Shown here in pieces: positions 615 through 63,662 of a stretch of DNA of 64,000 nt. Origin of the DNA: an uncultured Acidobacteriota bacterium (GTDB lineage: Bacteria; Acidobacteriota; UBA6911); NCBI GenBank assembly GCA_963809485.1, contig CAWEJX010000007.1, positions 704,001 through 768,000 on the forward strand. Direction: 5' to 3'. Made by a program: the position numbers and the translations under genes. Under the pieces are notes generated by a model. That model worked only from the letters and a program-made list of their open reading frames with translations. It ran no database searches and was not told the origin of the DNA. Position 1 is the first letter of the stretch. Each line of letters starts with the position of its first letter.

Positions 615-2429
615 ATGACCGCCCCAACCAAACATGCCGGGCTTCTGGCCTGGATCGATGAAATCGCCCGCATGACTCAACCGGATTCGCTCGTCTGGTG
701 CAACGGCACCAAAGCGGAATATGACTCTCTGACCGGCATCATGGTGGAGAGCGGATTGGCCACTCCCCTCCCCAAGCGCCCCAACTCATTCCTGTTCCGG
801 TCGGATGCTTCCGACGTGGCCCGTGTGGAGAACCGCACCTATATCGCTTCCAGATCGAAAGAAGATGCGGGCCCGACCAACAACTGGATCGATCCTTCCG
901 AGCTGCAGGCCACGATGACGAAACTCTATACCGGCTGCATGAGGGGCCGTACGATGTACGTGATCCCTTTCTCGATGGGCCCGGTGGGATCGCCGATCGC
1001 CAAAATCGGCGTCCAGGTCACGGATTCTCCCTATGTCGTGGCCAACATGCACATCGTGACCCGTGTCGGGAACCGTGTGCTCGATGTTTTGGGGGATTCG
1101 GGAGAGTTTGTTCCCTGTCTTCACAGCATCGGCAAACCCCTGCTTTCCTGTCAGGATGATCTGGGCCTGTGGCCCTGCGCGCCCCTTGAAAAGAAATACA
1201 TCGCGCACTTTCCCGAAACCAAGACCATCTGGTCCTATGGCTCGGGTTACGGCGGGAACGCTCTGCTGGGGAAAAAATGCCTGGCCCTGCGCATCGCCTC
1301 GGTCATTGCCAGAGATGAAGGGTGGCTCGCCGAGCATATGCTGATCCTCAAGATCACGAACCCGGCAGGGAAGTCCAAATACATCGCGGCAGCGTTTCCT
1401 TCCGCCTGCGGCAAGACCAACCTCGCCATGCTGGTGCCCACCGTCCCGGGCTGGAAAGTTGAAACCGTCGGCGATGACATCGCCTGGATGAAACCCGGTA
1501 AGGACGGCAGGCTTTATGCCATCAATCCGGAAGCAGGATTTTTCGGGGTAGCGCCGGGCACCTCCATGAGTTCCAACCCGAACGCCATGCGGACAATCGA
1601 GAAGAACTCGATCTTTACCAATGTCGCGCTGACCGAAGACGGAGACGTCTGGTGGGAGGGCATCGGTTACGACGCCCCCGGAAGGCTTATCGACTGGACG
1701 GGCAAGCCGTGGGTCCGGGACAAAGCCGATAAGGCTCAGCCTCCGGCGGCCCACCCCAACTCGCGTTTCACCACGCCGGCCGCGCAGTGCCCCTCCATCG
1801 CTGAGGAATGGGAAGATCCCGCGGGAGTACCGATCGACGCCATCCTTTTCGGAGGCCGGCGCGCGTCCACGGTTCCCCTCGTGAGCCAGGCCTTTTCCTG
1901 GAACCAGGGCGTTTTCATGGGCTCCATCGTGGGTTCCGAAATCACCGCCGCCGCTCTGGACCTCAAAGTCGGCTCGGTGCGCCGCGACCCGTTTGCCATG
2001 CTGCCTTTCTGCGGCTACAACATGGGCGACTATTTCGGGCACTGGCTACGGATGGGTGAGAAGACGCCGCCTGCCGCACAGCCGAAATTTTTCTTCGTCA
2101 ACTGGTTCCGCAAAACCAGGGAGGGCCGGTGGCTCTGGCCGGGATATGGGGAGAACAGCCGCGTGCTGAAGTGGATATTCGAGCAATGCGACGGGCAAGG
2201 GAAAGCAGTCGAAACCCCCATCGGCATTATGCCCGCAGCCGATGCCATTGAGTTTCCGGATGGCGTCACGGCCGAGGATATGAAAGAGCTGCTTGAAGTG
2301 GATGCGGCCGGGTGGAAAGCCGAGCTTGACGACGTCAAGGCTTCGCTTTATCCCAAATTCGGATCGAGGCTTCCCGATGAGCTGAACCGCCAGCTCGATG
2401 CGCTCGCCGAGCGGCTGGAGGAACGGTAA
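615..2429 (+). CDS. pckG: Phosphoenolpyruvate carboxykinase (GTP)
   Basis: Motifs [64 protein letters not shown] at 602-606 favours ATG 615. Confidence 0.97.
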
Positions 2430-2513
2430 CGCTGTAACGCTGACGAACGCCGTAACGCTGACGAACGCTGACAAAGGCGCTGACGAACGCTGTAACGCCG
2501 ACAAAGGCACTGA
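2427..2513 (+). repeat. ACGCYGAC element, tandem left arms only
   Basis: TAACGCTGTAACGCTGACGAACGCCGTAACGCTGACGAACGCTGAC...; the first TAA is the pckG stop. Confidence 0.85.
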
Positions 2514-2531
2514 AAGTATGGAGAGAATAAT

Positions 2532-3851
2532 ATGACAGCCCTGAATCCGCTGGCCGAAGAGTCCAATCGAGACCTTCAAAACGGCGCTCCGCAGATCTTG
2601 AACGTGTTGTCCGCGCGGGGCAAAGCGATTTATTTCCCTTTCAAGGGTATCCTCGGGCAAAGCGCGGAAGCCAAAAGCGCGAAAATCAACGCGACCATAG
2701 GCACGGCGTTCGAAGACGACAATTCGCCGCTGACCCTCGAATGCCTGGAATCCATGGTCAACATACCCTCCGAGTCTTTTCTCTACGCGCCCAGCTTCGG
2801 CATGCCCAGGCTGCGGGAGGAATGGGGCAAGCTCCTTGCGGTCAAGAATCCCGGATTGAAGGGTAAGATTTACAGCCTGCCCGTGACGACGGCCGCCCTT
2901 ACCCACGGGCTGTCCGTCGCCGGATACCTGTTCGTCGACGCCGGGGATGAGGTCCTGATACCCGATCTCTATTGGGACAACTACGAGCTCGTGTTCAGCG
3001 AAGCCTACGGTGCAAAGCTGGTTTTATACAATACTTTTGTAAACGGCGGATTCGATGTGGCCGCATTCTCCAGAGCGCTCAATGCGGGCAAAAAAGGCAA
3101 GAAAATCGTTCTCCTGAATTTCCCCAACAATCCGGCCGGCTATACTCCGACTGAAACCGAGTACACGGCGCTGGTTGAGGAAATCCGCAAGTCCGCCGAG
3201 GCGGGGAACCAGATCGTCGTGGTGCTCGATGACGCCTACTTCGGGCTCGTTTATGAAGAGGGCGTCGCCAAAGAATCCCTTTTTGTATCGCTGACGGACC
3301 TTCACCCGAACGTCCTGGGAGTGAAGCTGGACGGCCCGACCAAGGAGGACTACGTGTGGGGTTTCCGCGTGGGTTTCATGACCTTCGGTTTCAAAGGGGC
3401 GACCGGCGCTCAACTCAAGGCCCTGGAGAACAAGGCGGCCGGCGCCGTGCGCGGCACCATCTCCAACGTTTCATGTCTCGGCCAGTCGCTCCTGCTCAAA
3501 GCGTATACCGACCCCAAATACGCCGGGCAGAAAAAGCAGAAATACGAAATCCTCGCACGGCGCGCCCGCAAGATCCGCGAAATTGCCCAAAGCCATCCCG
3601 AATACGCGCAGAGTTTTGAAATGATGCCGTTCAACTCCGGATATTTCATGTGCGTCAAACCCCTGGGGGTCGACCCGGAGGCGCTGCGCAAGGAGTTGCT
3701 GGCGAATTACAGCACCGGCGTAATCGTGTTGTCCGGATTGATACGCATCGCCTTTTCGTCCGTGCCTTTCGACCTGATCGAAACCCTCTTCGCCAACCTG
3801 CACGACGCGATCCGGAAGCTAAACGGGGACAGTCACCAGCGTCCCCGTTGA
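2532..3851 (+). CDS. PLP-dependent aminotransferase class I/II
   Basis: LLNFPNNPAGY, VLDDAYFGL, KLDGPTKEDYVWGFRVG (PLP lysine region). Confidence 0.9.
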   Translation: MTALNPLAEESNRDLQNGAPQILNVLSARGKAIYFPFKGILGQSAEAKSAKINATIGTAFEDDNSPLTLECLESMVNIPSESFLYAPSFGMPRLREEWGKLLAVKNPGLKGKIYSLPVTTAALTHGLSVAGYLFVDAGDEVLIPDLYWDNYELVFSEAYGAKLVLYNTFVNGGFDVAAFSRALNAGKKGKKIVLLNFPNNPAGYTPTETEYTALVEEIRKSAEAGNQIVVVLDDAYFGLVYEEGVAKESLFVSLTDLHPNVLGVKLDGPTKEDYVWGFRVGFMTFGFKGATGAQLKALENKAAGAVRGTISNVSCLGQSLLLKAYTDPKYAGQKKQKYEILARRARKIREIAQSHPEYAQSFEMMPFNSGYFMCVKPLGVDPEALRKELLANYSTGVIVLSGLIRIAFSSVPFDLIETLFANLHDAIRKLNGDSHQRPR

Positions 3852-3918: not shown

Positions 3919-4135
3919 AAAAAATTAAGTTTCTTTTATTTATTCTCGCACCGTCTCTCCGTTACAATGTCGCGGAGCCCTGTAAACTGTGTTGTCAGCG
4001 CGCATTTTCAGCAAAGGTTGTGCAGCGAAACAGTCCGGCAGTGTCGCCGCAGAAAGCTCACAGGGGACGAGGATTTTTGGGCAGCCCCGCCTTTTCAAGA
4101 CACACACCTAGAACTTGTTCAGGAGACGCAAGACA

Positions 4136-5476
4136 ATGACTGCAAAAAGAGTCGCAAAAGCTGCCGCAAAAAAAGCCGCGGCGCCGGTCGCAAAATCGTA
4201 CAATCCTTTCCTTGTTGCCCAGGAACAGTTTGACCGCATCGCGGACATGCTGGATCTGGACCAGGCGACAAGGGATCTGCTTCGCAATCCGTTGAGAGAG
4301 TATCACTTCAGTATTCCCATCCGCATGGACCACGGCGGGATCCAGATTTTTCGCGGCTTCAGAGTTCAGCATAACGACGCCCGGGGCCCCTGCAAGGGCG
4401 GCATTCGATTTCATCCCATGGAAACCATCGATACCGATCCGGGCGCTCTCCATGTGGATGACGTGGAAGTGCTCCGTTGTGGACATACCGCTGGGCGGGA
4501 GCAAAGGCGGGATCATATGCGATCCGCACAATCTCAGCTAACACGAGATCGAGCAGCTCTGCCGCGGCTGGGTGCGGCAAATCGCCCGGGATGTCGGCCC
4601 CTACTCGACGTGCCTGCGCCGGACGTCATGACGAATCCGCAGGACATGCTTTGGATGCTGGATGAGTTTGAAAAAATCCATGGCGGCAAATTCCCCGGAT
4701 TCATTACCGGCAAGCCGATCAGCATCGGAGGATCGAAGGGACGCACCGAAGCGACCGGATACATGGTGGTCCTCACGGTTCGCGAAGCTCTCAAAGAACT
4801 GAATCTGAAGCCGGAAAATACCACGGCGAGCATCCAGGGATTCGGCAACGTTGCCCAATACTGCCGTCGAGCTCTACCACAAGATCGGCGGACATGGTGA
4901 TCTGCGTGTCAAGCTGGGATCCGACGGACAATAAAACATTCTGCTGCAGGAAAAAGTCCGGAATTCTGTTCGACGAGCTCAAGTCGATCAGCGATCCGTT
5001 CGGCACCATCGACCGCGTCAAGGCGCAGCAGATCTGGGATATGAAATTCTTCCCGGCGAGGCGTGGCTGGAACAGGATGTCGACATTCTGATTCCGGCGG
5101 CGGTTGAAAACCAGATCACGGCGGATAACGTGTCCAGAAGATCAATCCCAGGGTTAAACTGATCGCGGAAGGCGCCAACGGGCCCACGACACCCGAAGCG
5201 GATGTCATGCTCGAGAAACGCGGGACTTTCCTGATTCCGGACATTCTCTGCAACGCCGGCGGCGTCACCTGCAGCTACTTCGAACAGGTGCAGGGCAACA
5301 TGAATTATTATTGGGACGAGAAAGAGGTTTTCGACAAGCTGGATTCCAAAATGACCTCCGCGTTCCAGGCGGTCCGGGAAACAGCCAAGCGTCGCAGGCT
5401 CCGCAACAGAGACGCCGCCTATGTCCTCGCGGTGAATCGCGTGGCGCGGGCCTGCAAGGATCGGGGATGGGTTTAG
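4136..5476 (+). CDS. gdhA: Glu/Leu/Phe/Val dehydrogenase (glutamate dehydrogenase), several apparent frameshifts
   Basis: [69 protein letters not shown] occur in successive frames. RBS AGGAG at 4121. Confidence 0.88.
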
Positions 5477-5550
5477 CCGCCGCCATCCCTGATTTTGGTT
5501 TCGGCTGCAGATCGCATTATGTTTAATACATCGATAATCCAGCTTTTCGG

Positions 5551-5628
5551 GGGGGACTCACAGGATTGGACAGCTCCAGCATCAAATAACGCCGAAATAC
5601 GCTGACAAAAACGCTGATGAACGCTGAT
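5551..5628 (+). repeat. Relic IS200-like MITE left end followed by an ACGCYGAC left arm
   Basis: GGGGGACTCACAGGATTGGACAGCTCC resembles GGGGGACTCATAGAGTTTGACAGCTCC near 21428. It is followed by TAACGCCGAAATACGCTGACAAAAACGCTGATGAACGCTGA at 5587. Confidence 0.65.
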
Positions 5629-5699
5629 CCTTTAGCCTGTTATGTTCCGCCTGAAGAGCTGGAAAGTCCGTAGTCCCGGCAGGAAGTCGCGAGGAATCG

Positions 5700-8600
5700 A
5701 TGGAAAACAAATCTGTCGACAAACTCATTGATCGATCTCAAAGAGCGCGCGAAGGAACTCAACTGTCTTTACGAAGTTGAGGAGATCATGAGCAAGCCGA
5801 ATCTTCCGCTGGAGGAGGTTTTCCGCAAGATCGTCGATACGCTTCCGGCCGGCTGGCAGTATCCCGATACCTGCCAGGCAAGGATCACCTATGGCGACTT
5901 TGACGCCCAGACGGAGGGCTTTCGGGAATCTCCCTGGGTGCAGCACGCGGATATCCTGGTTCAGGACGAGGTCGTGGGCCGGATCAGCGTTTGCTACACG
6001 GAGGAACGCCCCGCCGCCGACGAAGGGCCCTTTCTCAAAGAAGAGCGGAAGCTGATCAACACCATTGCGGACCGACTCAAGCACCGAATCCTGCACGACG
6101 AATCTCAAGACGGTTTTTGAAAGGCAGAAGCTGAAGCGGGGAGGCTTCCGAGGAATGGGCCGTCATTCTGGACCTGCTGCGAAGAACCGATCCCAAGCTG
6201 CTCACCCGCATTCCAAGAAAGATGCTGAATCATCTCACCTGGGCCGGTTACGATCAAGGCGCATCAAATTCTTGAGCAGGGTCAGCCCGGTTCTGAAAGG
6301 CGATGGCGCCGACGCCGACCAGGACGAGAACCGGCCGCTGCGCATTCCGACGATCCCAGGATCTGCTCTCTGCCAGCGAGCGATATTTTCAAGCTCGCCG
6401 GAGAAGCATCTGCGGGAAAATGAGATCCTCGCTTTATCCAGAAATGGATCAGGAGGACCGTTCGGGATTTCTGATAAAGTCCTGGAAAATCCCAACTCCT
6501 CGCTGGTCGAAATCGCCGGCGCCATCGAGCGGTATCGCCATCTGATTCCGCAGGGCGTGGAGCTGTCGTCGCCCAGGGAGCGGGCGTTCCGCGTTTCGCT
6601 CATCCAGCGCCTCCTGAACGACGATCCGCAGTTCGTGCAGGTGGCCAAACAATTCATCAGCGTCAACGATTTCCACGATCTTCTCGAACAGACGATCTAT
6701 CCGCCGGGAAGCCACGGGAGGCTTGGCGGCAAGGGCGCCGGCCTGTTTGTCGCGTCGCAGATCCTGAAAAAAATGTCGGCGGACAACGAGCTCCTCGGCA
6801 GCGTCAAGACTCCGAAAACATGGCACTCACTTCGGACGGCCTTCTCAATTTCATCAACTACAACGACCTGGACGAGATCGTCGGAACACAAATACAAAGA
6901 TATCGGCCAGGTGCGGCAGGAGTATCCCTCCATCATTCAGGTATTCAAAAGCTCCTCTTTCCCGCCGGAGATCGTCAACGGGCTTGTCCATCGCGCTGGA
7001 TGATTTTGCGGAGGTCCCGTCTGATTGTGCGCAGTTCCAGCCTGCTCGAGGACAGCAAGGGGACCTCGTTTGCCGGCAAATACAAGAGCCTGTTCATCGC
7101 GAATCAGGGAAGCAAGCAAGAGCGCATCGCCGCCCTCATGGATGCCATTGCGGAAGTGTACGCCTCCACCTTCGGCCCGGATCCGATCGGGTATCGCATG
7201 GAGCGGGGATTGATCGATTTCCACGAGGAGATGGGAATCATGATCCAGGAAGTGGTGGGCACCAGGATCGGCCGCTATTACATGCCGGCTTTTGCGGGAG
7301 TTGCCTTCAGCCGCAACGAATTTCAATGGTCCCGCCGCATCCGCCGCGAAGACGGCCTGCTCCGCATGGTGCCCGGACTGGGCACGCGGGCGGTCGACCG
7401 CGTGCTGGATGACTACCCGATCCTCGATTTCGCCGGGCCAGCCGTCGCTGCGCGTCAATGTGACCGTCGAGGAGAAAGATCCGCTATTCTCCCAAGCGCA
7501 TCGATGTGATCAATCTTGGAATCCGGTTTGTTCGAGACGGTCGACCTGAAAGAGCTCCTGAGCGAATACGCCGACGACTATCCGATGATTCACCAAACTC
7601 GTCTCCATTCTGCAGGACGACAGGCTCATCCAGCCCTGGAACCTCGGCATCGACAGGGAAAGGGACTCGCTGGTCGTAACATTTGACGGCCTGCTCAGCC
7701 GCACGCCCTTCATCGAGCAGGCGTCGGCGATGCTGAAAACGCTCCAGTCCGAATTCCGGATGCCCATGGATATGGAGTTTGCGCACGACGGCACCGATCT
7801 GTACATCCTGCAATGCCGCCTCCAGAGCTACGGGGCCTGTCCGCAGCCGGCCGTCCTGCCTCGCGAAACGCCTGCGAAAGACCGAATCTTTTTTTCCGCC
7901 AACCGCTACGTCACCAACGGGACCATTCCCGGAATCACCCACATCGTTTACGTCGATCCGGATCAATATGCGGAGTTGCCAGCCGCACGGATCTTGTCGC
8001 GGTCGGCCAGGCCGTGAGCTGCGCTGAATCAGTTGCTGCCGAAGCGGCAGTTCATACTCATAGGGCCCGGACGCTGGGGCAGCCGCGGCGATATCAAACT
8101 CGGCGTGAGCGTCACCTACTCGGATATCAACAACACGGCGATGCTGATTGAAATCGCCGGAAAGCAAAAGATTACGTTCCCGAGCCATCCTTCGGCACCC
8201 ATTTCTTCCAGGACCTGGTCGAGGCGTCCATCCGGTATCTTCCCGCTCTATCCCGGCGATTGGGGAACCACTCTTCAATGAATCTTTTTTCAAGGATTCC
8301 CGCAACTGGCTGCCGGACCTTCTGCCCGATTTCGCCTACCTTGCCGGCACGGTGCGCGTCATCGATGTCGCGAACACGGCGCCGGGGATGGTGCTTCAGA
8401 TCCTGATGAACGGGGAACTGGACGAGGCGCTGGCAGTTTTGCCGGAACCGTCCCCGGAGCCGTCTGGAAACGCAGCCGATCGCAGCGGATACCCGCCCTG
8501 CCGGAATCCCGCCGCGAATACGCACTGGCGGTGGCGCCTGCAGAGCGTGGAACGCATGGCGGAGCTCATGGATCCGGCCCGCTTCGGAGTGAAGGCGATG

Positions 8601-8900: not shown

Positions 8901-9003
8901 TAACGCTGATACACGCTGACAAACACTGACCTACGCCGATTCCAAAATTTATATGAATTTTTTCAGCGTAAGTCAGCGCTTTTTTCGGCGTAAGTCAGCG
9001 TTA
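8901..9003. repeat. ACGCYGAC palindromic element (full)
   Basis: TAACGCTGATACACGCTGAC..., AT-rich loop, ...GTAAGTCAGCGTTA. Starts 1 bp after a stop codon. Confidence 0.9.
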
Positions 9004-9107: not shown

Positions 9108-10442
9108 ATGACGGAAAAGACCTGGGAAAACTACAAGCAGAATAAGCCGCTCAAGCCATCGCCTCTGAAGGATATCAAGGTCCTCGAAGTCTGCACCATG
9201 CTGCTGGGCCCCATGGGCCCGGCGTTGCTGGCGCAGCTGGGCGCCGAGGTGATACGCTGTGAAATCCCCCCGATGGGCGATTCCACCCGCTCGCTGAACC
9301 CGTTCGGATGGTTCCTGAAGGATCAAAGCCCCCTGCTTCTGCATATCAACCAGAACAAGTATTGGCTGGGACTCGACCTGCACAAGCGGGAGGCGCGCCG
9401 GATCTTCTGCGAGCTTGCCGCCAAGTGCGATATCGTCGAAAACAATTTCCGGCCGGGAGTCATGGAAGAGTGGGAAATCGGCTACCGGCAGATCCGTGCC
9501 ATCAATCCGGGGATCATCTTCCTGTCCAAGAGCGGCTACGGCCAGTGGGGCCAGTATGCCAGGGAGAACCGCCCGTCGAATGACGGCGCTTCCCAGGCCC
9601 TTTCCGGATACTCGTGGATGTCCCGCTTCCCCGGCCAGACGCCCCTGAAGATGCGCGCATACATCGGCGACAATTACGGCGCCATGAGCGCCGAGGTCGC
9701 CGTACTGGCTGCTCTCCATTACCGGGACAGGACCGGAAAGGGACAGTTCATCGAATTCTCGCAGACGGAAAATATCTTGAGGACCATGTCCTGGACCTGG
9801 CCCTATATCCAGCTCTCCGGCAGAAAGGCGGAGCCGGCCGGCAACCGGGATGTCTCCGTATGCCCCGCGGACACCTTCCGCTGCATCGACGACACTTTTG
9901 TCGCCCTCGCAGCGGCTGCCCCCGAGGAGTTCAAAGGCTTGTGCAAAGCCATGGACAAGCCGCAGCTGGCGGAAGACCCGAGGTTCAGAGACCACATCAC
10001 ACGGCTTAAAGAGGAGAACGCGACCGCCGTGTTGAAGATCATCGCCGATTGGGCACGGACGAAGCGGCCGGAAGAAATCGAGGCTCTGGCCGAACAGCAC
10101 GGCTTTGCTGCGAGCCACCTCTTTACGGCCAGGGACCTGGTCGAGAACGAGCACTTTCGCGCGAGAGATTTCTGGACGGAAATCGATGATGCGCTGATCG
10201 GCAAGTACCACAATTACGAATTTCCGGTAAAAATGTCGGGCACGCCGCCTCAGACCAGGTGGTCCGTGAGGCCGGTCGGTTTCGACAACGAGTTCATTCT
10301 GAAGAGCCTGCTGGGCAAGAACGACGAGCAAATCCGGCAACTGTACGAGGCCGGAGCCCTGGGCAAGTGGGCGGACGCTCAGGGCCGCCGCCCGCCGCCG
10401 GATTGGGACGGCAAAGCGGGACTCAACGTGGCAAAAAGCTGA
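9108..10442 (+). CDS. CoA-transferase family III (CaiB/BaiF)
   Basis: PLKDIKVLE, LGAEVIRCEIPPMGD, DIVENNFRPG, SGYGQWG, GKGQFI. Confidence 0.9.
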   Translation: MTEKTWENYKQNKPLKPSPLKDIKVLEVCTMLLGPMGPALLAQLGAEVIRCEIPPMGDSTRSLNPFGWFLKDQSPLLLHINQNKYWLGLDLHKREARRIFCELAAKCDIVENNFRPGVMEEWEIGYRQIRAINPGIIFLSKSGYGQWGQYARENRPSNDGASQALSGYSWMSRFPGQTPLKMRAYIGDNYGAMSAEVAVLAALHYRDRTGKGQFIEFSQTENILRTMSWTWPYIQLSGRKAEPAGNRDVSVCPADTFRCIDDTFVALAAAAPEEFKGLCKAMDKPQLAEDPRFRDHITRLKEENATAVLKIIADWARTKRPEEIEALAEQHGFAASHLFTARDLVENEHFRARDFWTEIDDALIGKYHNYEFPVKMSGTPPQTRWSVRPVGFDNEFILKSLLGKNDEQIRQLYEAGALGKWADAQGRRPPPDWDGKAGLNVAKS

Positions 10443-10472
10443 TAACGGACCGGAAGCAACGAGGATATCAAA

Positions 10473-11822: not shown

Positions 11823-11827
11823 AGCTA

Positions 11828-12423
11828 TAACGCTGACGGACGCTGAAAAAACGCTGACATACGCTGACACAAAAAAATTTATAGATATATTTTTTCAGCG
11901 TATGTCAGCGTTTCCGTCGGCGTAGGTCAGCGTATAATAGCGGAGCGGCCTTCATTAAAGCCTTGGATGTTGCCGAACTTCATGGCATTTCGCGCCCGTT
12001 GATGAATCACCCGTTTTCTTTGAAGTGCTTCCGGATAATTTTACCCACATCAGGCGGATATTCCGCTTTTCCGACACTGACGGACGCTGAGAGAAGCGCT
12101 GACAAACGCTGACTCAAAAAAATTTATAGATATATTTTTTCAGCGTATGTCAGCGTTCCGTCGGCGTAGGTCAGCGTATAATAGCGGAGCGGCCTTCATT
12201 AAAGCCTTGGATGTTGCCGAACTTCATGGCATTTCGCGCCCGTTGATGAATCACCCGTTTTCTTTGAAGTGCTTCCGGATAATTTTACCCACATCAGGCG
12301 GATATTCCGCTTTTCCGACACTGACGGACGCTGAGAGAAGCGCTGACAAACGCTGACTCAAAAAAATTTATAGATATATTTTTTCAGCGTATGTCAGCGT
12401 TTCTGTCGGCGTCCGTCAGCGTT
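11828..12423. repeat. Three ACGCYGAC elements separated by two ~140-bp diverged copies of the iorB 3' end (244-245 bp tandem unit)
   Basis: Elements at about 11828-11934, 12076-12178 and 12320-12423. Spacers 11936-12078 and 12180-12322 match iorB 12425-12461 joined to 12582-12692. Confidence 0.9.
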
Positions 12424-13015: not shown

Positions 13016-13025
13016 AGTCTCCTCC

Positions 13026-51135: not shown

Positions 51136-51146
51136 CTGAATGCATT

Positions 51147-52501: not shown

Positions 52502-52622
52502 CGTACGCTGACATGACGCTGACGTACGCTGAAAAAATATATAAATTTTTTTCGGCGTGGGTCGGCGTCCGTTCAGCGTAAGTCAGCGTTCAAGACCGGC
52601 GTAACCCCTCCAACCGCTTTGA
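52482..52622. repeat. ~140-bp direct repeat of 51194-51334 (ACGCYGAC element plus MITE flanks)
   Basis: Near-identical to 51194-51334. Encodes the C-termini of both convergent genes. Confidence 0.92.
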
Positions 52623-54764
52623 CTTTCCACCAAATAGCGGTTCAGCCAGTCGAGGACTGTGCGGTAAAACAACTCCGCGTTGAGCGGCTTCAGCACCCAG
52701 TGCCCTTCGTCGGGGAAGGATAGGAGTTTTGATTCGACTCCGCGCCTCTGCAGGGCGGTGAACATGGCCAGGCCTTCCGAGATCGGGACCCTGTAATCGA
52801 GCTCGCCGTGCGTCACCAGCTGCGGTGTTTTGAAATTTTTGACGTATCGGCTGGGGGAGAGGGCATCGTGCAGCGGCTGGTTTTCGTAGGGCGGGCCGCC
52901 CATTTCCCACTCGGGGAACCACAGTTCTTCGGTGACGTAGTAGCTGCTGGACTGGTCGAAATCACCCGCATGCCCGACCAGCGCTTTGAACCGGTCCGTG
53001 TGCCCCTGGAACCAGTTGATCATGAAGCCGCCGAAGGAGGCTCCCGCGGCGCCCATCCTATTGCCGTCGACATAGGGAAGCTTCGCAACGTAATCCGCGG
53101 CCAGCATCAGGTCGCGGAAGCAGCGGCCGCCCCAGTCGCGGTTGATTTCGTCGATGAACTGCTGCCCGTAGCCCGTGGACCCGCGCGGATCGGGCATGAA
53201 GACGACGTAGCCCGCGGCGGCGTACATCTGCGGATTCCAGCGATAGCCCCAGTTGTCCCCCCACGAGCCCTGCGGCCCGCCGTGAACGAGCATGAGCGCA
53301 GGATATTTTTTAGACGGATCAAAGCGCGGCGGTTTGAGAATCCACATGTGGGCTTTGGGGATGTCGAGAGCCTTTTGCGCCGGCATCGCGGCCTCCAGCT
53401 GGACGGGGTCGATGAATCCCGCCACCGCGGCCGGATCGGTCTTCGGCCCGCCCGACGAGGGAGACGCGTCGTGCCAGTATTCCTCCGCGCGGTTCATGTC
53501 GAGTCCGGCCAGCAGAGCGTCGTTGTGGTGCGTCAGCGCCGTTGCCTGGGATCCGTCCGTTCGGACGGAATAAACTTCCGCGGGCTGATGCATCGACGAC
53601 CGGGTGAAGACCAGCGTTCGCCCGTCCGGCGTCACTCCGATGTCGCCGGAGGAGTTTTCGGCGTAGATGCGCCGGATCGCGCCTCCCGCAACCGGGACCT
53701 CAAATATCGGGGTGCGGCCGCGGTCTTCGGCCAGAAAATATATCCTGCTCGAATCCGGCGCCCAGGCGAAAGAGTCGACCCAGCGGTCGAGTGCATCCGT
53801 CAGGCTGCGGCGCCTTCCCGTGGAGCGGTCGTAGATCATCAGCCGCAGGCGGTCGCTCTCGTATCCGGGGCGGGCCTGGGCGCGGTAGGCGATGTAGCGA
53901 GCGTCGGGCGAATACAGGGGAGACCCGTCGTAAGCGGGGTTTTCGGTGATTTTTTTTGTTTCACCCGTGGCGGTTGACCGTAAACAGGTCCGAGTTTGTC
54001 GACCGGGCTTCGTCGCGGTCGTGCTTCGAGGCGTAGCAGACTTCCTTGCCGTCGGGCGAGAAGGCGTAGTCGTCGGGGCCGCCCAGGGAAAACGGGGGGA
54101 CGTCGTAATCGCCGGGCGTCAGGTCGCGCGGCGGCTGCGAGCCGTCCTTAGGGACGAGGAAAAGGTGGGACCGCCGGCCGTCGCTCCAGCTGCTCCAGTG
54201 GCGGAACAGCAGGCGGGTGGCGACGTGCGCCTTGACCCTGGCGTTGTCGGCCGCACTCTTCCGGCCGGCGTTGCACTCCATCGCCTTTTGCCCATCGGCG
54301 TCCGAGCATTCCGGGTAAACGTCCGACGTGAAGAGCAGGTGCTTCCCGTCGGGGCTGTAGAGCACGCCGCCGGCTTCCGTCGCGACGGATGTGACCTGGA
54401 CCGCCTCGCCTCCCTCGAGAGGCAGGATGTAGACCTGGGCCCCGTCCCTCGCGGAGACAAATGCAATTTCCCTGCTGTCCGGCGACCAGCGCGGGCGCGC
54501 GTCGCTCTGTGCGGAGCGGGTGAGGCGGCGCGCCTCCCCGCCTGAAACGGGCAGGAGCCAGATGTCGGTGTTGCTGCGGTTCTTCTCTTTGTCGACCGCG
54601 GTGACCGTGTAGGCGATCCATTTGCCGTCCGGCGAGATCTGCGGGTCGCCGACGCGCTGCATCTTCATTAAATCATCGAACCCGAGCGGCCGCTTTTCCG
54701 CGGCATCCAGGCAGATGCCCATGCTCAGGACAGTGGCGAGCAGGGCGTGAACGAAATGACGCAT
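52583..54764 (-). CDS. S9 family peptidase (dipeptidyl/acylaminoacyl peptidase) with beta-propeller, one apparent frameshift near 53950-53975
   Basis: Signal peptide, PQISPDGK, PRWSPD, VHGGPQG, GASFGG (nucleophile), HGELDYRV, FPDEGHW. Confidence 0.9.
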
Positions 54765-54801: not shown

Positions 54802-54899
54802 TAACGCTGACGTACGCCGAAGGACGCTGATGAACGCTGAAAAAATATATATATAAATTGTTTCGGCGTGTGTCAGCGTTTTGTCAGCGTAAGTCAGCG
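54802..54899. repeat. ACGCYGAC palindromic element (full)
   Basis: Four units per arm, in a divergent intergenic region. Confidence 0.9.
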
Positions 54900-57900: not shown

Positions 57901-58046
57901 TGGGAGCCGGGTCGGAGGCGCGCCGGCCGCTCGGCCTGGCGGTGGAAGGCGGGCTGCTGGTTTCCCAGCTGCTCACGTTATACATTACGCCGGTGATTTA
58001 TGTTTACCTGGAGAAAGCGCGCCATCTTGTGCATAGGGAACGCTGA
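54984..58046 (+). CDS. RND efflux transporter permease (MdtB/MdtC-like)
   Basis: FIKRPV, PNVDFPTIQV, VVDDAIVMLEN, VFIP, LTPML, GIVKKNGIMMIDFA, RFRPIMMTT. Ends HRER* in a GAACGCTGA unit. Confidence 0.95.
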   Translation: MNISAIFIKRPVMTTLVMLGIVIFGIVGYRTLPVSDLPNVDFPTIQVSAGLPGASPELMAASVATPLEKQFSTISGVDSMTSSSSLGQTSITLQFSLDRDLDAAAQDVQIAIASAQRLLPPGMPTPPNFRKVNPADQPILILSLNSPTLPLSTLDSYAENMIAQRISMISGVALVNVWGSTKYAVRAQVDPNLLAARGIALSEIEAAIDQHNVNMPSGTLWGARQAYTVKSTGQLTDAEQYGNIVVTYRNGSPVRLRELGRVIDSIQNDKTAAWFNNGGSDIRSIILAVQKQPGTNTVQVVDSIKDQLRTLRELLPPSVNLGLLIDRSQTIRESVNDVKFTLLLTVMLVVLVIFIFLRNVSATIIPSLALPMSIVGTFAAMSLLGYTMDNLSLMALTLSVAFVVDDAIVMLENIVRHMEMGQSRMEAAFTGAKEIGFTILSMTISLTAVFIPVLFMGGIMGRLFHEFAVVIMVAILISGVVALSLTPMLSSRMLNPQTEDPHTFYRVTEKGFQAARNFYGWTLRGVLRHRFITLLFAFGTLAATVYLYGFVPKGFVPSQDQGMLSGSTEGPQDVSFEAMAQMQQQMNKVLRSSPHIDAFMSFAQGGNAGRFMIRLKPRSERKLTPEEIIETLRPKLNALPSIRTYLQNPPLIRIGGMQTRSQYQFTLQSPDLEQLYRVGADFQTRMRDIPELVDVTSDLQLNNPEVTVRIDRDMASSLNVAPDLIESTLFAAYGSKQVSMIYTSTDNYYVILEVLPQFQRDPNALSLLYVKSRAGKLVPLSQLASLETGIGPLSVAHYGQFPAVTLSFNMQPGVSLGQAVESIQEVARTSLPAGITTMFQGMAAAYEASLKGMGMLLILAILVIYMVLGILYESFIHPITILSGLPSAGLGALATLLVFRQELNIYSFVGIIMLVGIVKKNGIMMIDFAIEAQRTQGLSPADAIHQACLVRFRPIMMTTMAALVGTLPIALGMGAGSEARRPLGLAVEGGLLVSQLLTLYITPVIYVYLEKARHLVHRER

Positions 58047-58053
58047 CGTACGA

Positions 58054-58187: not shown

Positions 58188-59450
58188 ATGGATGCTGGGA
58201 GGGGAATTATGTTGAGGGCCGGCAATAAGTGCGGATTGGCCCGTCATTTTACCTGGGCTATTTTGCTGTGTATCTCATTCTCTCTGGCGGCGCAGGGATG
58301 CAGGGGCCGTTCTGAATCGCAGGAGACTCCGTCCAAAGGAGGGATGCGCGGCGGTGCGGTTACGGTTGTTGCCGCCATAGCCGTCCAGAAAGACGTGCCG
58401 ATCAACATCCAGGCTGTCGGCCGCATCGAGAGCTCTGCCACGGTCACCCTGAAATCCCAGATGAGCGGGGAACTGATGCAGGTGCTTTTCCGCGAAGGAG
58501 ATTTTGTCAAACAGGGGCAGGAGCTTTTCAGGGTCGATTCGCGCACCTACGAGGCGCAACTGACCCAGGCGCAGGCCAACCTGTCGAAGGATGAAGCCGC
58601 ACTCGCCCAGATGGAGGCGAACCTGGCGCGCGATCTTGCCCAGCAGAAATACGCGGAATCGCAGGCCGCACGCGACCGCAGCCTCCTGGGGAAAAATCTC
58701 GTTTCGAAGGAGCAGGCGGAGCAGTCGGCCGCCAGCGCGGAAGCGGCTGCCGCGACGGTCCGGGCCGACCAGGCGGCGGTCCTGAGCGCCCGCGCCTCGA
58801 TCGAAGCCACTAAAGCCGAGATCGCCAACGCCCGCATCCTGCTCGGCTACGCCAGCATCCGCTCGCCCATCAGCGGCCGGACCGGGAGCCTCCTCATCCA
58901 GCAGGGCAACCTGGTCGGCCCCAACACGGAGCTCATGACCATAAACCAGATCGAGCCGGTTTACGCCGCCTTCTCCGTGCCCGAAAATCAGCTGCCTTCC
59001 GTGAAGAAGGGGCAGGCCGTATCGATTTCGAAAGACGCGGGCCCGTCAACGTTTGAGGACGGCAAGCTTTTCTTTATCGATAACGCCGTGGATGAATCGA
59101 CGGGAACCATCCTCGTCAAAGCCGCCTTTGCAAACCGCAGCCACCAGCTTTGGCCGGGCGAGTTTGTCCGCGTGGTCCTGAGGCTTGGAACCCGGGCGGG
59201 CGCTCTGGTAGTGCCCGGCCAGGCCGTGCAGGCGGGCCAGGAAGGATCGTTCGTGTTCGTCGTGAAGCCGGACCAGACCGTCGAATCGCGCCCCGTCGTC
59301 CCCGGGATGCACGTCGATGGGCAAATTGTGATAGAAAAAGGCCTGGAACCCGGCGAAACGGTTGTCACCGAAGGCCAGCTCCGTCTCACGGCCGGCAGCA
59401 AGGTTCAGGTAACGCTGACAAACGCCGACAAAAACGCTGACGTACGCTGA
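58188..59450 (+). CDS. RND efflux periplasmic adaptor subunit (MdtA-like)
   Basis: F.EGDFVKQGQELF, IRSPISGRTG, IDNAVDESTGTI, LWPGEFV, GLEPGETVVTEGQ. Tail TLTNADKNADVR* comes from a repeat arm. Confidence 0.93.
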   Translation: MDAGRGIMLRAGNKCGLARHFTWAILLCISFSLAAQGCRGRSESQETPSKGGMRGGAVTVVAAIAVQKDVPINIQAVGRIESSATVTLKSQMSGELMQVLFREGDFVKQGQELFRVDSRTYEAQLTQAQANLSKDEAALAQMEANLARDLAQQKYAESQAARDRSLLGKNLVSKEQAEQSAASAEAAAATVRADQAAVLSARASIEATKAEIANARILLGYASIRSPISGRTGSLLIQQGNLVGPNTELMTINQIEPVYAAFSVPENQLPSVKKGQAVSISKDAGPSTFEDGKLFFIDNAVDESTGTILVKAAFANRSHQLWPGEFVRVVLRLGTRAGALVVPGQAVQAGQEGSFVFVVKPDQTVESRPVVPGMHVDGQIVIEKGLEPGETVVTEGQLRLTAGSKVQVTLTNADKNADVR

Positions 59451-59532
59451 TATTTTTAGTAACGCCGACTTACGCTGACAAAACCGCGGACGAACGCCGA
59501 CAGATAGGATACGGGTCAGCGTATATCGGCGG
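59410..59532. repeat. ACGCYGAC element (two tandem left arms plus degenerate right arm)
   Basis: TAACGCTGACAAACGCCGAC.. at 59410, TAACGCCGACTTACGCTGAC.. at 59460, GTCAGCGTATATCGGCG at about 59515. Confidence 0.85.
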
Positions 59533-59807: not shown

Positions 59808-59840
59808 TCCAATATTCTACTTTATCCGCAGTATGAACTC

Positions 59841-59930
59841 AACCTTCCACGTTCCACGTTCCACGTTCAAACGTTCAAACGTTCAAAACGTTCAACGTTC
59901 AAACGTTCGAACGTTCCAGGTTCCACGTTT
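59841..59930. repeat. AACGTT-core heptamer array
   Basis: (GTTCCAC/GTTCAAAC)n, about 12 units. Confidence 0.85.
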
Positions 59931-59965: not shown

Positions 59966-61069
59966 GTGAAACGGAAACTGCTGCTTGCGCTCTGTGTGCT
60001 GATCGTCATAGGATATTTGATTGTCGGCCTGTGGCCCTTCGAGTTCAATCCCGACAACCGGGTGGCGTGGTCCTTAGACGGCCAGGGGATCGCCCTGAGC
60101 CATCCGTCGATCCTGTACAGTGAGAAGCCTGTCGATTTGAGAAACAGCGGGGGAAACGTCAGCGTCGAAGTGTGTCTGCAGCCGGCAGAGGAGCCCGCCT
60201 GGGGATTCACCAAAATCCTGTCCCTGTCCGAAGAAAGTGTGCGCAGGAACCTGTTTGTGGCGCAGCGGGAAAAAAATCTTTGGCTGCAGCTTCCGATATG
60301 GGACAAAGGCAGATGGAATGCCTACGACCAGGTATGGGTCAAGGGAGTGCTGCAGCGGGGCGTGCGGCGCTTTGTGGCGGTGACTGCCGGAACCGAGGGA
60401 ACGGATTTTTACGTGGATGGAGTGCTGGCGCGGAGCTATCCGAAACTGAAGCCGAGGCCCAATGTGCTGCGCGGCTATGTGGTGCTGGGGGGAATCGGGA
60501 GCGGGAACCGAAACTGGGAAGGGCGGCTGTACGGCGCCGCGATATTCGACCGGACGCTTTCGGCGTCGGACATCGCGCGCCACTACAGCCTGTGGAGCGG
60601 CGCTGAACGGCGGAAAATTGCGGAAGAGGACGGACTATCGGCGCTTTATTTTTTTGATGAAAAAGGCGGGAGCGTCGTCCGGGACCACGGACCGGCGGGT
60701 GCGACGATGCGGATCGGCGCCAAGTACCAACTGCGGGACCGCAGCGTGTTTCCGGCGTTTTGGAGGGGCGGGTACAGCCGCGTCGACATCGCCATCAACC
60801 TGCTCGGTTTCGTCCCGTTCGGCTTGTGCTATTTCCTATACAGGAAGCGGACACATCCGGGGCGGCTTTGGGGCAATATTTTCGTAACGCTCATTATTGC
60901 CGCGGCCGTCAGCGCCACGATCGAAACGCTCCAAATCTGGCTTCCGGTCCGATCCCCGTCCTACCTGGATCTCATCTGCAACATTTCGGGGGCTGCGGCA
61001 GGGTTGATTTTAACGCTGACGTACGCTGACAGAACGCCGACCCACGCTGAAAAACAAAAAATATACTGA
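59966..61069 (+). CDS. Membrane protein with LamG/ConA-like domain and C-terminal VanZ-like domain
   Basis: GLWPFEF; FVAVT..FYVDG..W.G.L..AIFDRTLS (LamG-like); DIAINLLGFVPFG..IETLQ.WLP.R..S..D...N..G (VanZ). Tail [19 protein letters not shown] comes from a repeat arm. Confidence 0.75.
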   Translation: MKRKLLLALCVLIVIGYLIVGLWPFEFNPDNRVAWSLDGQGIALSHPSILYSEKPVDLRNSGGNVSVEVCLQPAEEPAWGFTKILSLSEESVRRNLFVAQREKNLWLQLPIWDKGRWNAYDQVWVKGVLQRGVRRFVAVTAGTEGTDFYVDGVLARSYPKLKPRPNVLRGYVVLGGIGSGNRNWEGRLYGAAIFDRTLSASDIARHYSLWSGAERRKIAEEDGLSALYFFDEKGGSVVRDHGPAGATMRIGAKYQLRDRSVFPAFWRGGYSRVDIAINLLGFVPFGLCYFLYRKRTHPGRLWGNIFVTLIIAAAVSATIETLQIWLPVRSPSYLDLICNISGAAAGLILTLTYADRTPTHAEKQKIY

Positions 61070-61584
61070 AATATTTGAGCCGGTAGCGAAACAATTCCGG
61101 TATGGAACTGAAATATTCCGAAACTACCGGGCCATTGATCGACCTTTTTTTCGACGTATACAAAACGCTAGGATATGGATTTCTGGAACGGGTTTATGGA
61201 AAAGCCATGACGGTAGCGGGACCGAAGTATGGGCTCATAATCAAGCCGGAAGTCAAAATTAGGGTGTTTTTTGAAGGCATAGAGGTTGGCAAATACGAGC
61301 CGGATCTGATTGTGAATGATGCCGTGATTGTGGAGCTGAAAACATGCCAGGCGATCCTCAAAGAACATGAGGCTCAGCTGTTGAACTACCTCAAGGCCAC
61401 GAAGTACGAAGTCGGCTTTCTGTTTAACTTTGGCCCCATCGCGCGATATAAGCGCATGGTTTTTGAAAACGCGCGCAAGGGCACTCTTTCATGGATCCAG
61501 CCGCAGCCCGATCCGGCAACATTGCCATAGCAGGCTGGATTTTTTCAGCGTGTGTCGGCGTCCGGTCAGCGTGCGTCAGCGTTA
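61011..61584. mobile_element. Putative autonomous element: 44-bp ACGCYGAC inverted arms enclosing a GxxExxY nuclease gene
   Basis: Left arm 61011-61054 and right arm 61541-61584 are reverse complements at 40/44 positions. They are of the same family as the ~25 empty copies. Confidence 0.7.
61102..61530 (+). CDS. GxxExxY protein (PD-(D/E)XK nuclease-like)
   Basis: LGYGFLERVY signature, PDLIVNDAVIVELK catalytic-type motif, HEAQLLNYLKAT..G.L.NFG. Visibly more AT-rich than neighbouring genes. Confidence 0.93.
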   Translation: MELKYSETTGPLIDLFFDVYKTLGYGFLERVYGKAMTVAGPKYGLIIKPEVKIRVFFEGIEVGKYEPDLIVNDAVIVELKTCQAILKEHEAQLLNYLKATKYEVGFLFNFGPIARYKRMVFENARKGTLSWIQPQPDPATLP

Positions 61585-62504
61585 TTCAGATACCACCGGT
61601 AAGTGGCCTCTATGCCCTGGCGCAACGGGATTTTGGGTTGCCAGCCGAGATAGCGGAGGCGCGAGACGTCCATGAGCTTGCGCGGCGTGCCGTCGGGCAT
61701 CGCCGGATCGAACTCGATGTCACCCTCATACCCCACCACCTCGCGCACCATCTCGCACAGCTCGCGTATCGTCAGGTCCTCGCCCGTCCCCACGTTGATG
61801 ATCTCTTCCTGATCGTAGCGCTCCATCAGGAATACCAACGCGTCGGCGAGGTCGTCGACGTGCAGGAACTCCCGCCTCGGCGTCCCCGTCCCCCACACCT
61901 TGACGCTCGGCGTGCCCGCCGCTTTGGCGTCGTGGAATTTCCGCAGCAGCGCAGGAAGCACGTGCGACGTCTGCAAATCGAAGTTGTCCCCCGGCCCGTA
62001 CAGGTTGGTCGGCATGGCGCTGATGGCGGCAAACCCGTACTGGCGGCGGTAGGCCTGGCAAAGCTTGATGCCGGCGATCTTGGCGATGGCGTACCACTCG
62101 TTGGTCGGCTCGAGCGGCCCGGTCAGCAGGTGCTCTTCGCGCAGCGGCTGCGGCGCCAGTTTCGGGTAAATGCACGACGAGCCCGTAAAGAGCAGCTTCT
62201 TGACTCCGCAGCGCCACGCTGCGTGGATGACGTTCGCCTCGATCATCAGGTTCTGGTAAATGAATTCCGCCGGGTAAGCATTGTTGGCCTGTATCCCGCC
62301 GACGCGCGCCGCGACCAGGTACACCTGCTCCGGCCGCTCTTTTTCGAAGAAAGCGTTTGCAGCCCGCTGGTCCATCAGGTCCAGTTCATCGATCGTCCGG
62401 ACCAGCAGCCCCTCAGGTCCGCCCAGCCGCCGCACAATCGCGGAACCTACGAGACCCGTGTGGCCCGCAACATAGATCTTCGTCATAGATTCGCCTTTCT
62501 TCAA
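61566..62504 (-). CDS. fcl: GDP-L-fucose synthase
   Basis: [62 protein letters not shown]. Ends NADAR* in a repeat arm. Confidence 0.96.
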
Positions 62505-63541
62505 ACTCCTCGCCTCACCGAAACCTTATGCCCGGCATTGCGCAGCGTGCATTCCTGTTTGGCCAGTTCCATGTCATGGTCGACCATCATGCGCACGAGC
62601 TCCTTGAAGCTCACCTTGGGCTTCCAGCCGAGTCTGGCCCGCGCTTTGGAGCTGTCGCCTTCCAGATGATCGACTTCCGTCGGACGGAAGTAGCGCGTAT
62701 CCTTTTCGACCAACACTTTCCAGTCGACGCCGGCATAGCCGGCGGCTTCATCCAGAAATTCCCGCACCGTGTGCGTCTCGCCCGTGGCGATGACGTAGTC
62801 GTCGGGGGCGGGCTGCTGCAGCATGAGCCACATGGCCTCGACGTAGTCGCCGGCGAATCCCCAGTCGCGCTTCGCCTCGAGGTTGCCGAGGTAGAGCTTC
62901 GTCTGCAGGCCTTGCTTGATGCGCCCGAGTGCGCGGGTGATCTTGCGCGTGACGAAAGTCTCGCCGCGCTGCGGCGATTCGTGGTTGAAGAGGATGCCGT
63001 TGCAGATGAAAAGCCCGTAAGCTTCGCGGTAGTTCACGGCGTACCAGTGGGCGGCCACTTTGCTCACTCCGTAGGGGCTGCGCGGATAGAAGGGCGTCGT
63101 CTCGCTCTGCGGCGGCGCGGCCTTGCCGAACATTTCCGAGGAGCCGGCCTGATAGAAGCGTATGGGTTCGTGCGAGCCGGCGCCGTAATCGTGTATGGCT
63201 TCGAGCATGCGCAGAGTGCCGGTCGCCACGGCGTCGGCGGTGTATTCCGGCTGGTCGAACGACACGCGCACGTGCGACTGCGCCCCGAGGTTGTAGACTT
63301 CGTCCGGGGCCGTCTTTTCCAGGATGCGCCTCAGGCTGGTCGCGTCCGTCAGGTCGCCGTAATGCAGAAAAATGCGGCTGCCCGATTCATGCGGGTCGAG
63401 GTAAATGTCGTCGATGCGGTCGGTGTTGAAGGTGCTCGTCCTGCGCATGATGCCGTGGACTTCGTAACCCTTCGACAGCAATAGCCGGGCCAGGTAGGAT
63501 CCGTCCTGGCCCGTCACCCCCGTAATCAACGCTTTCTTCAT
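62501..63541 (-). CDS. gmd: GDP-mannose 4,6-dehydratase
   Basis: [63 protein letters not shown]. Confidence 0.97.
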
Positions 63542-63564
63542 GGTTCGTCCTTCCTGAAAATCAT

Positions 63565-63662
63565 TGAACGCTGACACACGCTGACAAAACGCTGACGCAC
63601 GCCGAAATTTTATATATTTTTTTCAGCGTGTGTCGGCGTTTTGTCAGCGTACGTCAGCGTTA
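63565..63662. repeat. ACGCYGAC palindromic element (full)
   Basis: The right arm encodes the ABC protein tail [17 protein letters not shown]. Confidence 0.92.

Follow-up and report, generated by a model that had tools for sequence, protein, structure and literature searches.

An ACGCYGAC repeat family with one gene-carrying copy

The stretch analysed here (the window) comprises 64,000 nucleotides of DNA from an uncultured Acidobacteriota bacterium (contig CAWEJX010000007.1, positions 704,001 to 768,000). It carries 26 elements built from short units with the core ACGC(T/C)GA, about one per 2.5 kb: 18 full palindromes, two interrupted palindromes, four one-armed arrays, one right-arm remnant and one single unit (Table 1). 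One of the two interrupted palindromes, a copy of 571 bp (61013-61583) overlooked in the preliminary description of this DNA, has its arms 494 bp apart, enclosing an open reading frame (ORF) for a 142-aa nuclease of the PDDEXK_3/GxxExxY family.

Exact matches to ACGCYGAC number 111 on the two strands of the window, whereas 100 shuffles that kept the dinucleotide composition averaged 5.72 and never exceeded 11, and the preliminary description was right to treat the motif as a real family. A somewhat relaxed core grouped the units into 28 clusters, two of which (49385-49439 and 61877-61914, both intragenic) were excluded as probable chance occurrences; doubtful clusters were inspected. All 26 positions named previously contain at least one unit; 18 are full palindromes and the rest are interrupted, one-armed, reduced to a remnant or single. 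Contrary to what had been thought, these are not plain palindromes: each arm is itself an array of three or four tandem units. At 61011, where another such copy had been placed, a unit is indeed present, but it belongs to the left arm of the 571-bp copy, whose right arm lies at 61545-61583.

The units of an arm measure 10-12 bp, with a spacing in the window of 10 bp in 68 cases, 11 bp in 16 and 12 bp in 13, or about one helical turn. Paired arms are linked by an A/T-rich loop of 15-25 nt, with an A-run at its start and a T-run at its end. The 18 full palindromes span 70-105 bp, have terminal inverted repeats and are without coding capacity. Their outer ends read nTA-ACGC...GCGT-TAn or TGA-ACGC...GCGT-TCA, in agreement with the ends first reported. 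Also in agreement with that report, the flanks of the window copies contain no direct repeat longer than TA that could mark a target-site duplication, only TA or T-N; and the TA flank is not demonstrable as such a duplication, since this dinucleotide is its own complement and may itself form the end of the inverted repeat.

All 18 full copies are predicted to form long hairpins (-26 to -73 kcal/mol). The conserved feature of the window elements is the core, however, not the stem: when left arms are compared with reverse-complemented right arms, identity is 0.94 in the cores but 0.61 in the spacers, which is no higher than the spacer identity between different elements (0.64), and the spacers thus show no element-specific complementarity. 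The hairpin is more stable on the + strand in 16 of the 18 palindromes, irrespective of the direction of the neighbouring genes, because the T.G wobbles lie on that strand. In a manual tally that counted duplicated copies (the tandem triplet and the identical pair) once, the figure was 13 of 15 (two-sided binomial, approximately 0.007). The wobble positions form two subfamily patterns, so that descent from master copies explains at least some of this polarity; that it favours a single strand may point to action on one DNA strand.

The protein encoded within the gene-carrying copy matches Pfam PF13366 (PDDEXK_3; E 9.4e-34, 116.7 bits against a cutoff of 22) and NCBIfam TIGR04256 ('GxxExxY protein'; 109 bits, cutoff 35), and G24/E29/Y32 and D68/E78/K80 are invariant in a 49-sequence alignment of the family. 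Its confident AlphaFold (AF2) model (predicted local distance difference test, pLDDT, 90.6) found Cas4 SSO0001 (4ic1) as the top Foldseek match (E 2.4e-4), followed by lambda exonuclease and the AdnA nuclease domain and, more weakly, Hjc resolvases, with template-modelling (TM) scores of about 0.4-0.5; in searches by sequence, neither the single protein nor a profile (E<=10) matched a PDB entry. By profile, D...ExK motif and predicted fold, the product is assigned to the PD-(D/E)XK nuclease family. A defence-system reading was considered and rejected, PADLOC giving only weak Cas4 matches (E 0.007) and PHROGs a weak endonuclease match (E 0.005).

The GxxExxY family is large, with 9365 representatives of 50%-identity clusters at E<=1e-3 and 1915 at E<=1e-10. 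Many homologues lie on contigs of approximately 1-2 kb, and plasmid records with the gene are rare (8 of 72,556). The family includes fused two-domain proteins of 250-277 aa (P0121, P0122, P0125, P0126, P0128, P0139, P0233 and P0255), which suggests that the single-domain protein acts as a dimer. The C-terminal tails of homologues P0002, P0004, P0010, P0028 and P0095 (e.g. NADGR, TDPRRSAEIRV) resemble translated arm units, and those ORFs may therefore run into an arm.

The arms of the gene-carrying copy align unit for unit, several spacers included, with the gene-less palindromes of the window, and the A-run and T-run just inside these arms correspond to the palindrome loops. A palindrome of about 100 bp is what an internal deletion of the gene-carrying copy would be expected to leave, and we consider it very likely that the palindromes derive from the gene-carrying element. 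An epimerase ORF (61566-62504, - strand) ends within the right arm of this copy.

Inverted arms around GxxExxY genes in other phyla

For comparison, genome contigs were scanned with the family alignment, and the best 80 of at least 594 relatives confirmed by tblastn were retained. These show 45-55% identity, the closest of them 55%, and come from at least nine phyla, including Chloroflexota, Bacteroidota, Acidobacteriota, Ignavibacteriota, Planctomycetota and Nitrospirota. Seventy-five of the 80 loci had at least 150 bp on both flanks and were testable, an inverted repeat being counted where it scored above all 40 shuffles. Such a repeat brackets the GxxExxY gene in 70 of these 75 loci, as opposed to 5 of 121 positional controls placed +-3 kb away.

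The arms in these loci are again arrays of tandem units of about 10 bp, with the consensus AC(G/A)C(G)GAT, a spacing of 9-10 bp and T-N-G-G/A ahead of the first core. Under a strict core (AC[GA]CNGA), at least one + unit upstream together with at least one - unit downstream was present in 64 of the 75 loci, compared with 10 for the reversed orientation; at least two of each were present in 40, compared with two. Unit totals show the same orientation (upstream 158 + versus 18 -, downstream 147 - versus 56 +), the background density of the strict core being 0.58 and 0.53 per kb over 1.05 Mb. Conversely, when arm pairs were defined by at least three units each, 120-4000 bp apart, 18 of 22 enclosed the GxxExxY gene. 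The four without it are adjacent separate elements (the window pairs) or enclose host rhamnose-utilisation genes that lie between reversed junctions in L071, a Saprospiraceae metagenome-assembled genome. In that genome, junctions at 4960-6180 and 9585-9880 run from - units to + units between rhamnose-utilisation genes, and host genes, besides the GxxExxY gene, are therefore bracketed by + units before and - units after them. Gene-less palindromes are found in these genomes as well, ten in eight loci having the arm variant of the same genome's gene copy, and in L048 the loop of the gene-less copy is the sequence that lies just inside the arm of the gene copy. With considerable confidence, we regard the arms and the GxxExxY gene as one functional module conserved across phyla.

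A module of this kind might act as RNA. In transcripts reading through from the host gene upstream, the arms would pair as a long stem that leaves the nuclease ORF looped out, and this stem would be processed as in ORF-bearing rRNA intervening sequences, the core serving the protein as an RNA site, for example in autoregulation. The arms do bracket the ORF tightly and often adjoin the stop of the upstream gene: in the other phyla, 47 of 98 arm ends have the stop of an ORF of at least 100 codons within +-30 nt, compared with 50 of 488 control positions, and the copy in the window starts 32 nt after a VanZ-like ORF. Yet the 48 gene-carrying loci show no sense-strand G.U asymmetry (sense 21, antisense 19, equal 8; Wilcoxon p 0.48), the asymmetry in the window is independent of the direction of transcription, and at the gathering score Rfam matched neither the window nor 20 of the loci (116,727 bases). 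Action as RNA would also leave the spread of gene-less copies to 25 other sites unexplained, and we judge it improbable.

Two related Ignavibacteriaceae genomes (L055 and L065, flanks 80-89% identical) allow a direct comparison of sites. At one orthologous intergenic site a gene-carrying element in L065 corresponds to a gene-less palindrome of about 80 bp in L055; L055's own gene copy lies directly after a stop codon, and the corresponding site in L065 is without an element. These are one example of conversion from a gene-carrying to a gene-less form and one of presence versus absence.

The GxxExxY genes also form syntenic groups in Anaerolineae, Ignavibacteria and Terriglobia, and three extra paralogues occur in the flanks of the loci. 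The ratio of non-synonymous to synonymous substitution rates (dN/dS) was 0.02-0.19 in the 7 pairs, of 13, for which dS was estimable. Where dS is saturated at syntenic loci, the arm cores persist and the spacers vary. The units of a locus can also change variant in concert: all units of L077 read CGCGGAT, and those of the syntenic L028 and L057 read CACGGAT. By these comparisons both the gene and the arm cores are shown to be under selection. When arm class was mapped on the protein tree it required 19 changes, compared with 25.2+-2.3 after shuffling (fraction as low 0.014; with shuffling confined to each phylum, 0.016). Of two Chloroflexota clades, one consists of 11 members, all in the CGC class, and the other of 14, of which 13 are in the CAC class.

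Placement at gene 3' ends

Our gene map of the window was built from codon-usage-scored ORFs checked with Pfam, a longest-ORF map having proved wrong in places. It includes several fragmented genes and gives 44 gene 3' ends and 43 gene starts. Half of the 3' ends (22 of 44), but only one of the 43 starts, lie within -57 to +15 nt of an element edge, and 2000 trials of uniform random placement gave a mean of 1.36 3' ends and a maximum of 6. The association with stop codons proposed earlier on is thus upheld against random placement. At least one gene 3' end is touched by 16 of the 26 elements. In the other phyla, too, arm ends gather where genes stop, as the 47 of 98 given above (controls, 50 of 488) indicate. 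By a manual tally of gaps of at least 60 bp, elements occupy 13 of 20 tandem gaps, three of seven divergent gaps and all eight convergent gaps, where the preliminary description had spoken of most convergent gene pairs.

Many of these contacts involve the stop codon itself. As first noticed from the letters, the terminal TAA or TGA of an element is the host stop codon in pckG, the methyltransferase, the radical-SAM/SPASM maturase and qor. Eleven ORFs, pckG and qor included, read 1-57 nt into an element and terminate there, and elements provide at least 15 window ORFs with their final codons or with their stop. These ORFs simply run in and stop because units and termini supply the stops: every ACGCTGA unit contains TGA, the 10-12-bp spacing brings stops into all three frames in both directions, and the element termini read TAA or TGA inward. 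Insertion at a 3' end would be tolerated for the same reason, and these features favour tolerance, rather than insertion aimed at stops, as the reason for the placement. We infer that elements are found at stops because they bring stops with them, perhaps in combination with a T/A-rich target.

The idea that copies double as bidirectional terminators is without sequence support. A T-rich right flank, as expected of a U-tract after the stem, was present in one of 19 examined (26571), and a terminator scan of 10001-30000 returned 25 sites where 21.6 were expected, none of them a whole element. With no U-tract and an unenriched scan, a canonical bidirectional intrinsic terminator is unsupported. 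A broader explanation would make the palindromes host structures, either RNA hairpins at 3' ends (for termination or mRNA protection) or arrays bound by a nucleoid or regulatory protein, with the GxxExxY gene a passenger in one loop. The preference for 3' ends over starts, the full occupancy of convergent gaps, the long hairpins and the retention of arms at syntenic loci in other clades would all suit such structures. We nonetheless think them unlikely. The same type of unit brackets the GxxExxY gene in at least nine phyla and is at background level elsewhere in those loci, which is unlike a host-specific site. Besides the missing U-tracts and the lack of terminator enrichment, hairpin stability goes with the absolute + strand, regardless of how the neighbouring gene is oriented, and the spacers lack element-specific compensation. 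Finally, identical copies at unrelated sites, one copy split by foreign sequence and one-armed arrays do not suit host structures.

Several further features of the window adjoin or resemble these elements. A 244-bp tandem repeat (11833-12461; 2.6 copies, 96% identity) has in each copy one palindrome plus approximately 150 bp, the first 35 nt or so of which duplicate the 3' end of the adjacent POR-gamma gene. The insert at 15060-15234 sits in the right arm of its palindrome, and the inner inverted units just before it (TTCGGCGAGGGTCGGCG) are found again at about 21512-21528. Three members of one palindrome subfamily share a conserved stretch of about 70 bp immediately 5' of the element (14925-14996, 21395-21463 and 51135-51206); this stretch has a small CCGGC..GCCGG hairpin and ends in CCGTATTTTGAA, and its right-side counterpart TTCAAGACCGG lengthens the stem. 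Sigma-70-like promoter matches occur inside elements at 11864-11893, 12109-12136, 12353-12380 and 26529-26557; the innermost unit supplies the -35 (CTGACA) and the A/T loop the -10. The region 10001-30000 has 12 such sites, compared with 6.3 expected.

A second repeat family, with 7-8-bp units (GGAACGT / AACGTTG), forms arrays, often as inverted half-arrays, at 19008-19069, 22922-22989, 33530-33651, 37027-37358, 50033-50098, 51114-51135 and 59839-59929. These lie mostly just 5' of gene starts, including three divergent gaps without an ACGCYGAC element, and their distribution is therefore roughly complementary to that of the 3'-end palindromes. Short tandem repeats occupy tandem gaps without a palindrome at 28984-29013 and 43032-43063 (CCTGTAA x4 and AACTGGA x4.6). 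Genes broken into pieces in different frames lie at 4115-5476, 5728-8017, 32405-33518, 43111-46926, 48789-49947 and 52583-54764; they are those for glutamate dehydrogenase, a PPDK-like protein, a GT4 glycosyltransferase, a sugar kinase/aldolase region, an aldose epimerase and an S9 peptidase, and are either pseudogenes or the result of indel errors in the assembly.

Table 1. Elements of the ACGCYGAC family in the window, with the parts of the gene-carrying copy.
Feature	Position	Strand	Remarks
One-armed array, ~7 units	2428-2502	+	First TAA is the pckG stop codon (2427-2429)
One-armed array, 4 units	5589-5628	+	112 nt after gdh fragment
Full palindrome	8903-9002		Tandem + gap; one of two copies with hairpin more stable on - strand
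Three full palindromes	11830-11934, 12084-12178, 12328-12423		In 244-bp tandem repeat, 2.6 copies, between convergent genes
Interrupted palindrome	14997-15252		175-bp unrelated inverted repeat (15060-15234) inserted; divergent gap
Full palindrome	16616-16708		Fills convergent gap; stops 5 and 7 nt from edges
Full palindrome	20452-20544		Convergent gap; terminal TCA is the methyltransferase stop codon (20544-20546)
One-armed array: left arm and two degenerate inverted units	21464-21513	+	No outer right arm
Full palindrome, short left arm	24381-24459		Terminal TCA is the radical-SAM/SPASM maturase stop (24459-24461)
Palindrome, 1-unit left and 4-unit right arm	26502-26571		16-17 nt from MutS2 stop, by edge definition
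Full palindrome	30018-30113		Terminal TTA is the qor stop codon (30112-30114)
Full palindrome	32304-32396		Convergent gap
Full palindrome	35150-35229		Divergent gap; exception to 3'-end rule
Full palindrome	38523-38601		Tandem + gap; 4 nt after stop, 11 nt before next start
Full palindrome	41652-41725		Convergent gap; TPR/Wzy ORF stops 17 nt inside
Full palindrome	42338-42441		HAD hydrolase ORF stops 42 nt inside right arm
Right-arm remnant	46971-47003	-	
Full palindrome, extended-end subfamily (CCGTATTTTGAA...TTCAAGACCGG)	51207-51302		Identical to 52495-52590
Full palindrome identical to 51207-51302	52495-52590		Convergent gap; both adjacent ORFs stop in outermost units
Full palindrome	54804-54891		Divergent gap; exception to 3'-end rule
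Single unit	58040-58047	+	Its TGA is the AcrB-family stop codon
One-armed array, 7 + units and 1 - unit	59412-59523	+	HlyD-like ORF stops 39 nt inside
Left arm of gene-carrying copy	61013-61051	+	Four units, all +; TTA before; unit-for-unit alignment with gene-less left arms
PDDEXK_3 / GxxExxY nuclease ORF, 142 aa	61102-61530	+	PF13366 and TIGR04256 matches
Right arm of gene-carrying copy	61545-61583	-	Four inverted units, all -; TA after
Full palindrome	63568-63661		ABC-transporter ORF stops 51 nt inside

A proposed hairpin-armed element and known systems

We favour, as the probable explanation, that the palindromes of the window are gene-less derivatives of a GxxExxY hairpin-armed element, similar to miniature inverted-repeat transposable elements (MITEs) or to REPINs, the hairpin-forming doublets of repetitive extragenic palindromic (REP) sequences. 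The complete form would be the copy at 61013-61583, with two inverted four-unit arms around a minimal Cas4/RecB-like nuclease gene, and an interior deletion would join the arms via the A/T-rich stubs just inside them to give a palindrome of about 100 bp. The nuclease, which probably acts as a dimer or a larger oligomer, would recognise the repeated core, presented either along one side of the double helix or in a hairpin extruded from it, and would cut at the T-N / TA junction of the outer ends. As an enzyme that hydrolyses DNA is unable to ligate it, copying or re-insertion would have to be completed by host repair or replication. Where an element inserts at a stop codon or shortly ahead of one, the host protein would lose little or nothing, since the termini supply TAA/TGA when read inward and TGA is present in each T-unit. 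Insertions in coding sequence or promoters would be removed by selection.

Within this explanation, the step in which the nuclease mobilises or amplifies the arms is a plausible but tentative one. More tentative again is its general form, that GxxExxY / PDDEXK_3 proteins may be the enzymes of previously unrecognised bacterial hairpin-armed elements, mobile or self-maintaining, in which a Cas4-like nuclease of about 140 aa reads helically phased decamers in its own inverted arms. The gene-less arm pairs, as analogues of REPINs, could then reach thousands of copies per genome, and the strand bias of 16 of 18 palindromes would arise from activity on DNA that is single-stranded at the replication fork. 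Such elements would be convergent with IS200/IS605 and with REP and its associated tyrosine transposase (RAYT), but hydrolytic.

A number of observations weigh against a derivation and spread of this kind. PD-(D/E)XK enzymes hydrolyse DNA and do not rejoin it, and the proposed mechanism is therefore incomplete. The window contains a single copy of the gene, and 5 of the 75 loci elsewhere are without a flanking inverted repeat. Gene-less copies are rare in the other genomes (10 in approximately 1.05 Mb of flanks), so that proliferation is not a general property of the module. A more distant member on a plasmid (41.5% identity) is not simply bracketed by inverted arms: L081 (CP102406.1, a plasmid of a cultured Fusobacteriota isolate; features at 1203-1460 and 1875-1925) has a complete palindrome and a further - run upstream, and - units downstream. 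A conserved syntenic locus under strong purifying selection, as found in several clades, also fits a function retained by the host. Lastly, arm class follows the protein tree only to a modest degree, which may be due to co-inheritance alone and does not prove co-evolution.

With MITEs the palindromes of the window have in common their small size, the lack of coding sequence, terminal inverted repeats and ends that recur in a longer copy with a gene; truncated copies occur, and foreign sequence interrupts one. Unlike in MITEs, each arm is an array of repeats throughout, no target-site duplication is demonstrable and the partner gene is none of the known transposases. Whole-arm arrays of internal decamers are atypical of the terminal inverted repeats of IS630-type elements. 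Still, TA lies on both sides of most copies, and this, together with their short, non-coding form and terminal inverted repeats, would be compatible with an origin as MITEs of an IS630/mariner-type DDE transposon that targets TA and lies elsewhere in the genome, the GxxExxY gene being mere cargo. We hold such an origin to be very unlikely, as arms accompany the GxxExxY gene in 70 of 75 loci and no transposase domain was found among 74 window ORFs scanned against Pfam in two partly overlapping sets, a scan confined to the window.

In a 2012 survey of the PD-(D/E)XK superfamily, the function of PDDEXK_3 is given as 'Unknown'. Otherwise, in searches that left most subscription journals outside, the literature on GxxExxY / PDDEXK_3 consisted of incidental annotation with nothing on repeats, TIGR04256 and two arm strings had no match, and the titles and abstract openings of the REP/RAYT papers found mentioned no PD-(D/E)XK partner. 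We found no published description of a GxxExxY hairpin element within these limits, and an earlier description elsewhere is possible. If the proposal is true, it offers a testable function for a very large protein family of unknown role that extends from Chloroflexota to Bacteroidota, and it adds a second, unrelated enzyme class with a long-lived repeat-nuclease association of the REP/RAYT type. It would also account for a dominant intergenic feature of this genome, which touches half of the gene 3' ends. The core AC(G/A)CNGA(T/C) in phased arrays poses a defined problem of protein-DNA recognition for a minimal nuclease domain, and for annotation the arrays mark ORF ends that are set by repeats and places where assemblies tend to break.

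Among other known systems, the protein is akin to Cas4 and RecB-family nucleases (4ic1 SSO0001, lambda exonuclease, the AdnA domain) in its fold and in its D...ExK and QxxxY-like motifs, although the Cas4 profile match is weak (E 0.007), TM scores reach only about 0.4-0.5 and the protein is shorter than the matched chains (approximately 200-225 residues). The scanned window ORFs included no cas, recombination or helicase genes. The subterminal repeat arrays at the ends of Tn7 or Mu and in CACTA-type elements provide multiple binding sites for large multi-domain transposases. By analogy, the phased short motifs in inverted orientation described here would be multiple binding sites for the element's own protein, but the only gene in this case is that for a single-domain nuclease of about 140 aa.

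In REP/REPIN-RAYT systems the cognate gene encodes an HUH Y1 (IS200/IS605 TnpA-like) transposase. The likeness to these systems (see the RAREFAN preprint, 10.1101/2022.05.22.493013, and PMC3337134) is threefold: the nuclease gene of the window is flanked by inverted copies of a dispersed repeat, an arrangement found elsewhere too; the repeat is also present as many gene-less hairpin doublets, extragenic and mostly at gene ends; and the gene is retained in several clades at a conserved locus and under purifying selection. RAYT genes are also single-copy and passed on vertically; the syntenic groups of GxxExxY genes would suit that, but L055 and L065 differ in site and three extra paralogues are present. 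In contrast, the gene here is of the PD-(D/E)XK (Cas4/RecB-like) class, which is without covalent-intermediate chemistry, and none of the 74 scanned window ORFs has a Y1 transposase domain. The repeats differ as well. PMC3733652 describes a REP as short and imperfectly palindromic, with GTAG or CGTC conserved at its head; REPs are single palindromes of 20-40 bp, whereas the arms in the window are three or four tandem decamers with ends T(A/G)A-ACGC. The window elements are not REP/REPIN-RAYT members, because they have neither an HUH transposase nor a REP with a GTAG or CGTC head. Set beside those systems, the GxxExxY elements span many phyla, among them Chloroflexota, Acidobacteriota, Bacteroidota and Ignavibacteriota.

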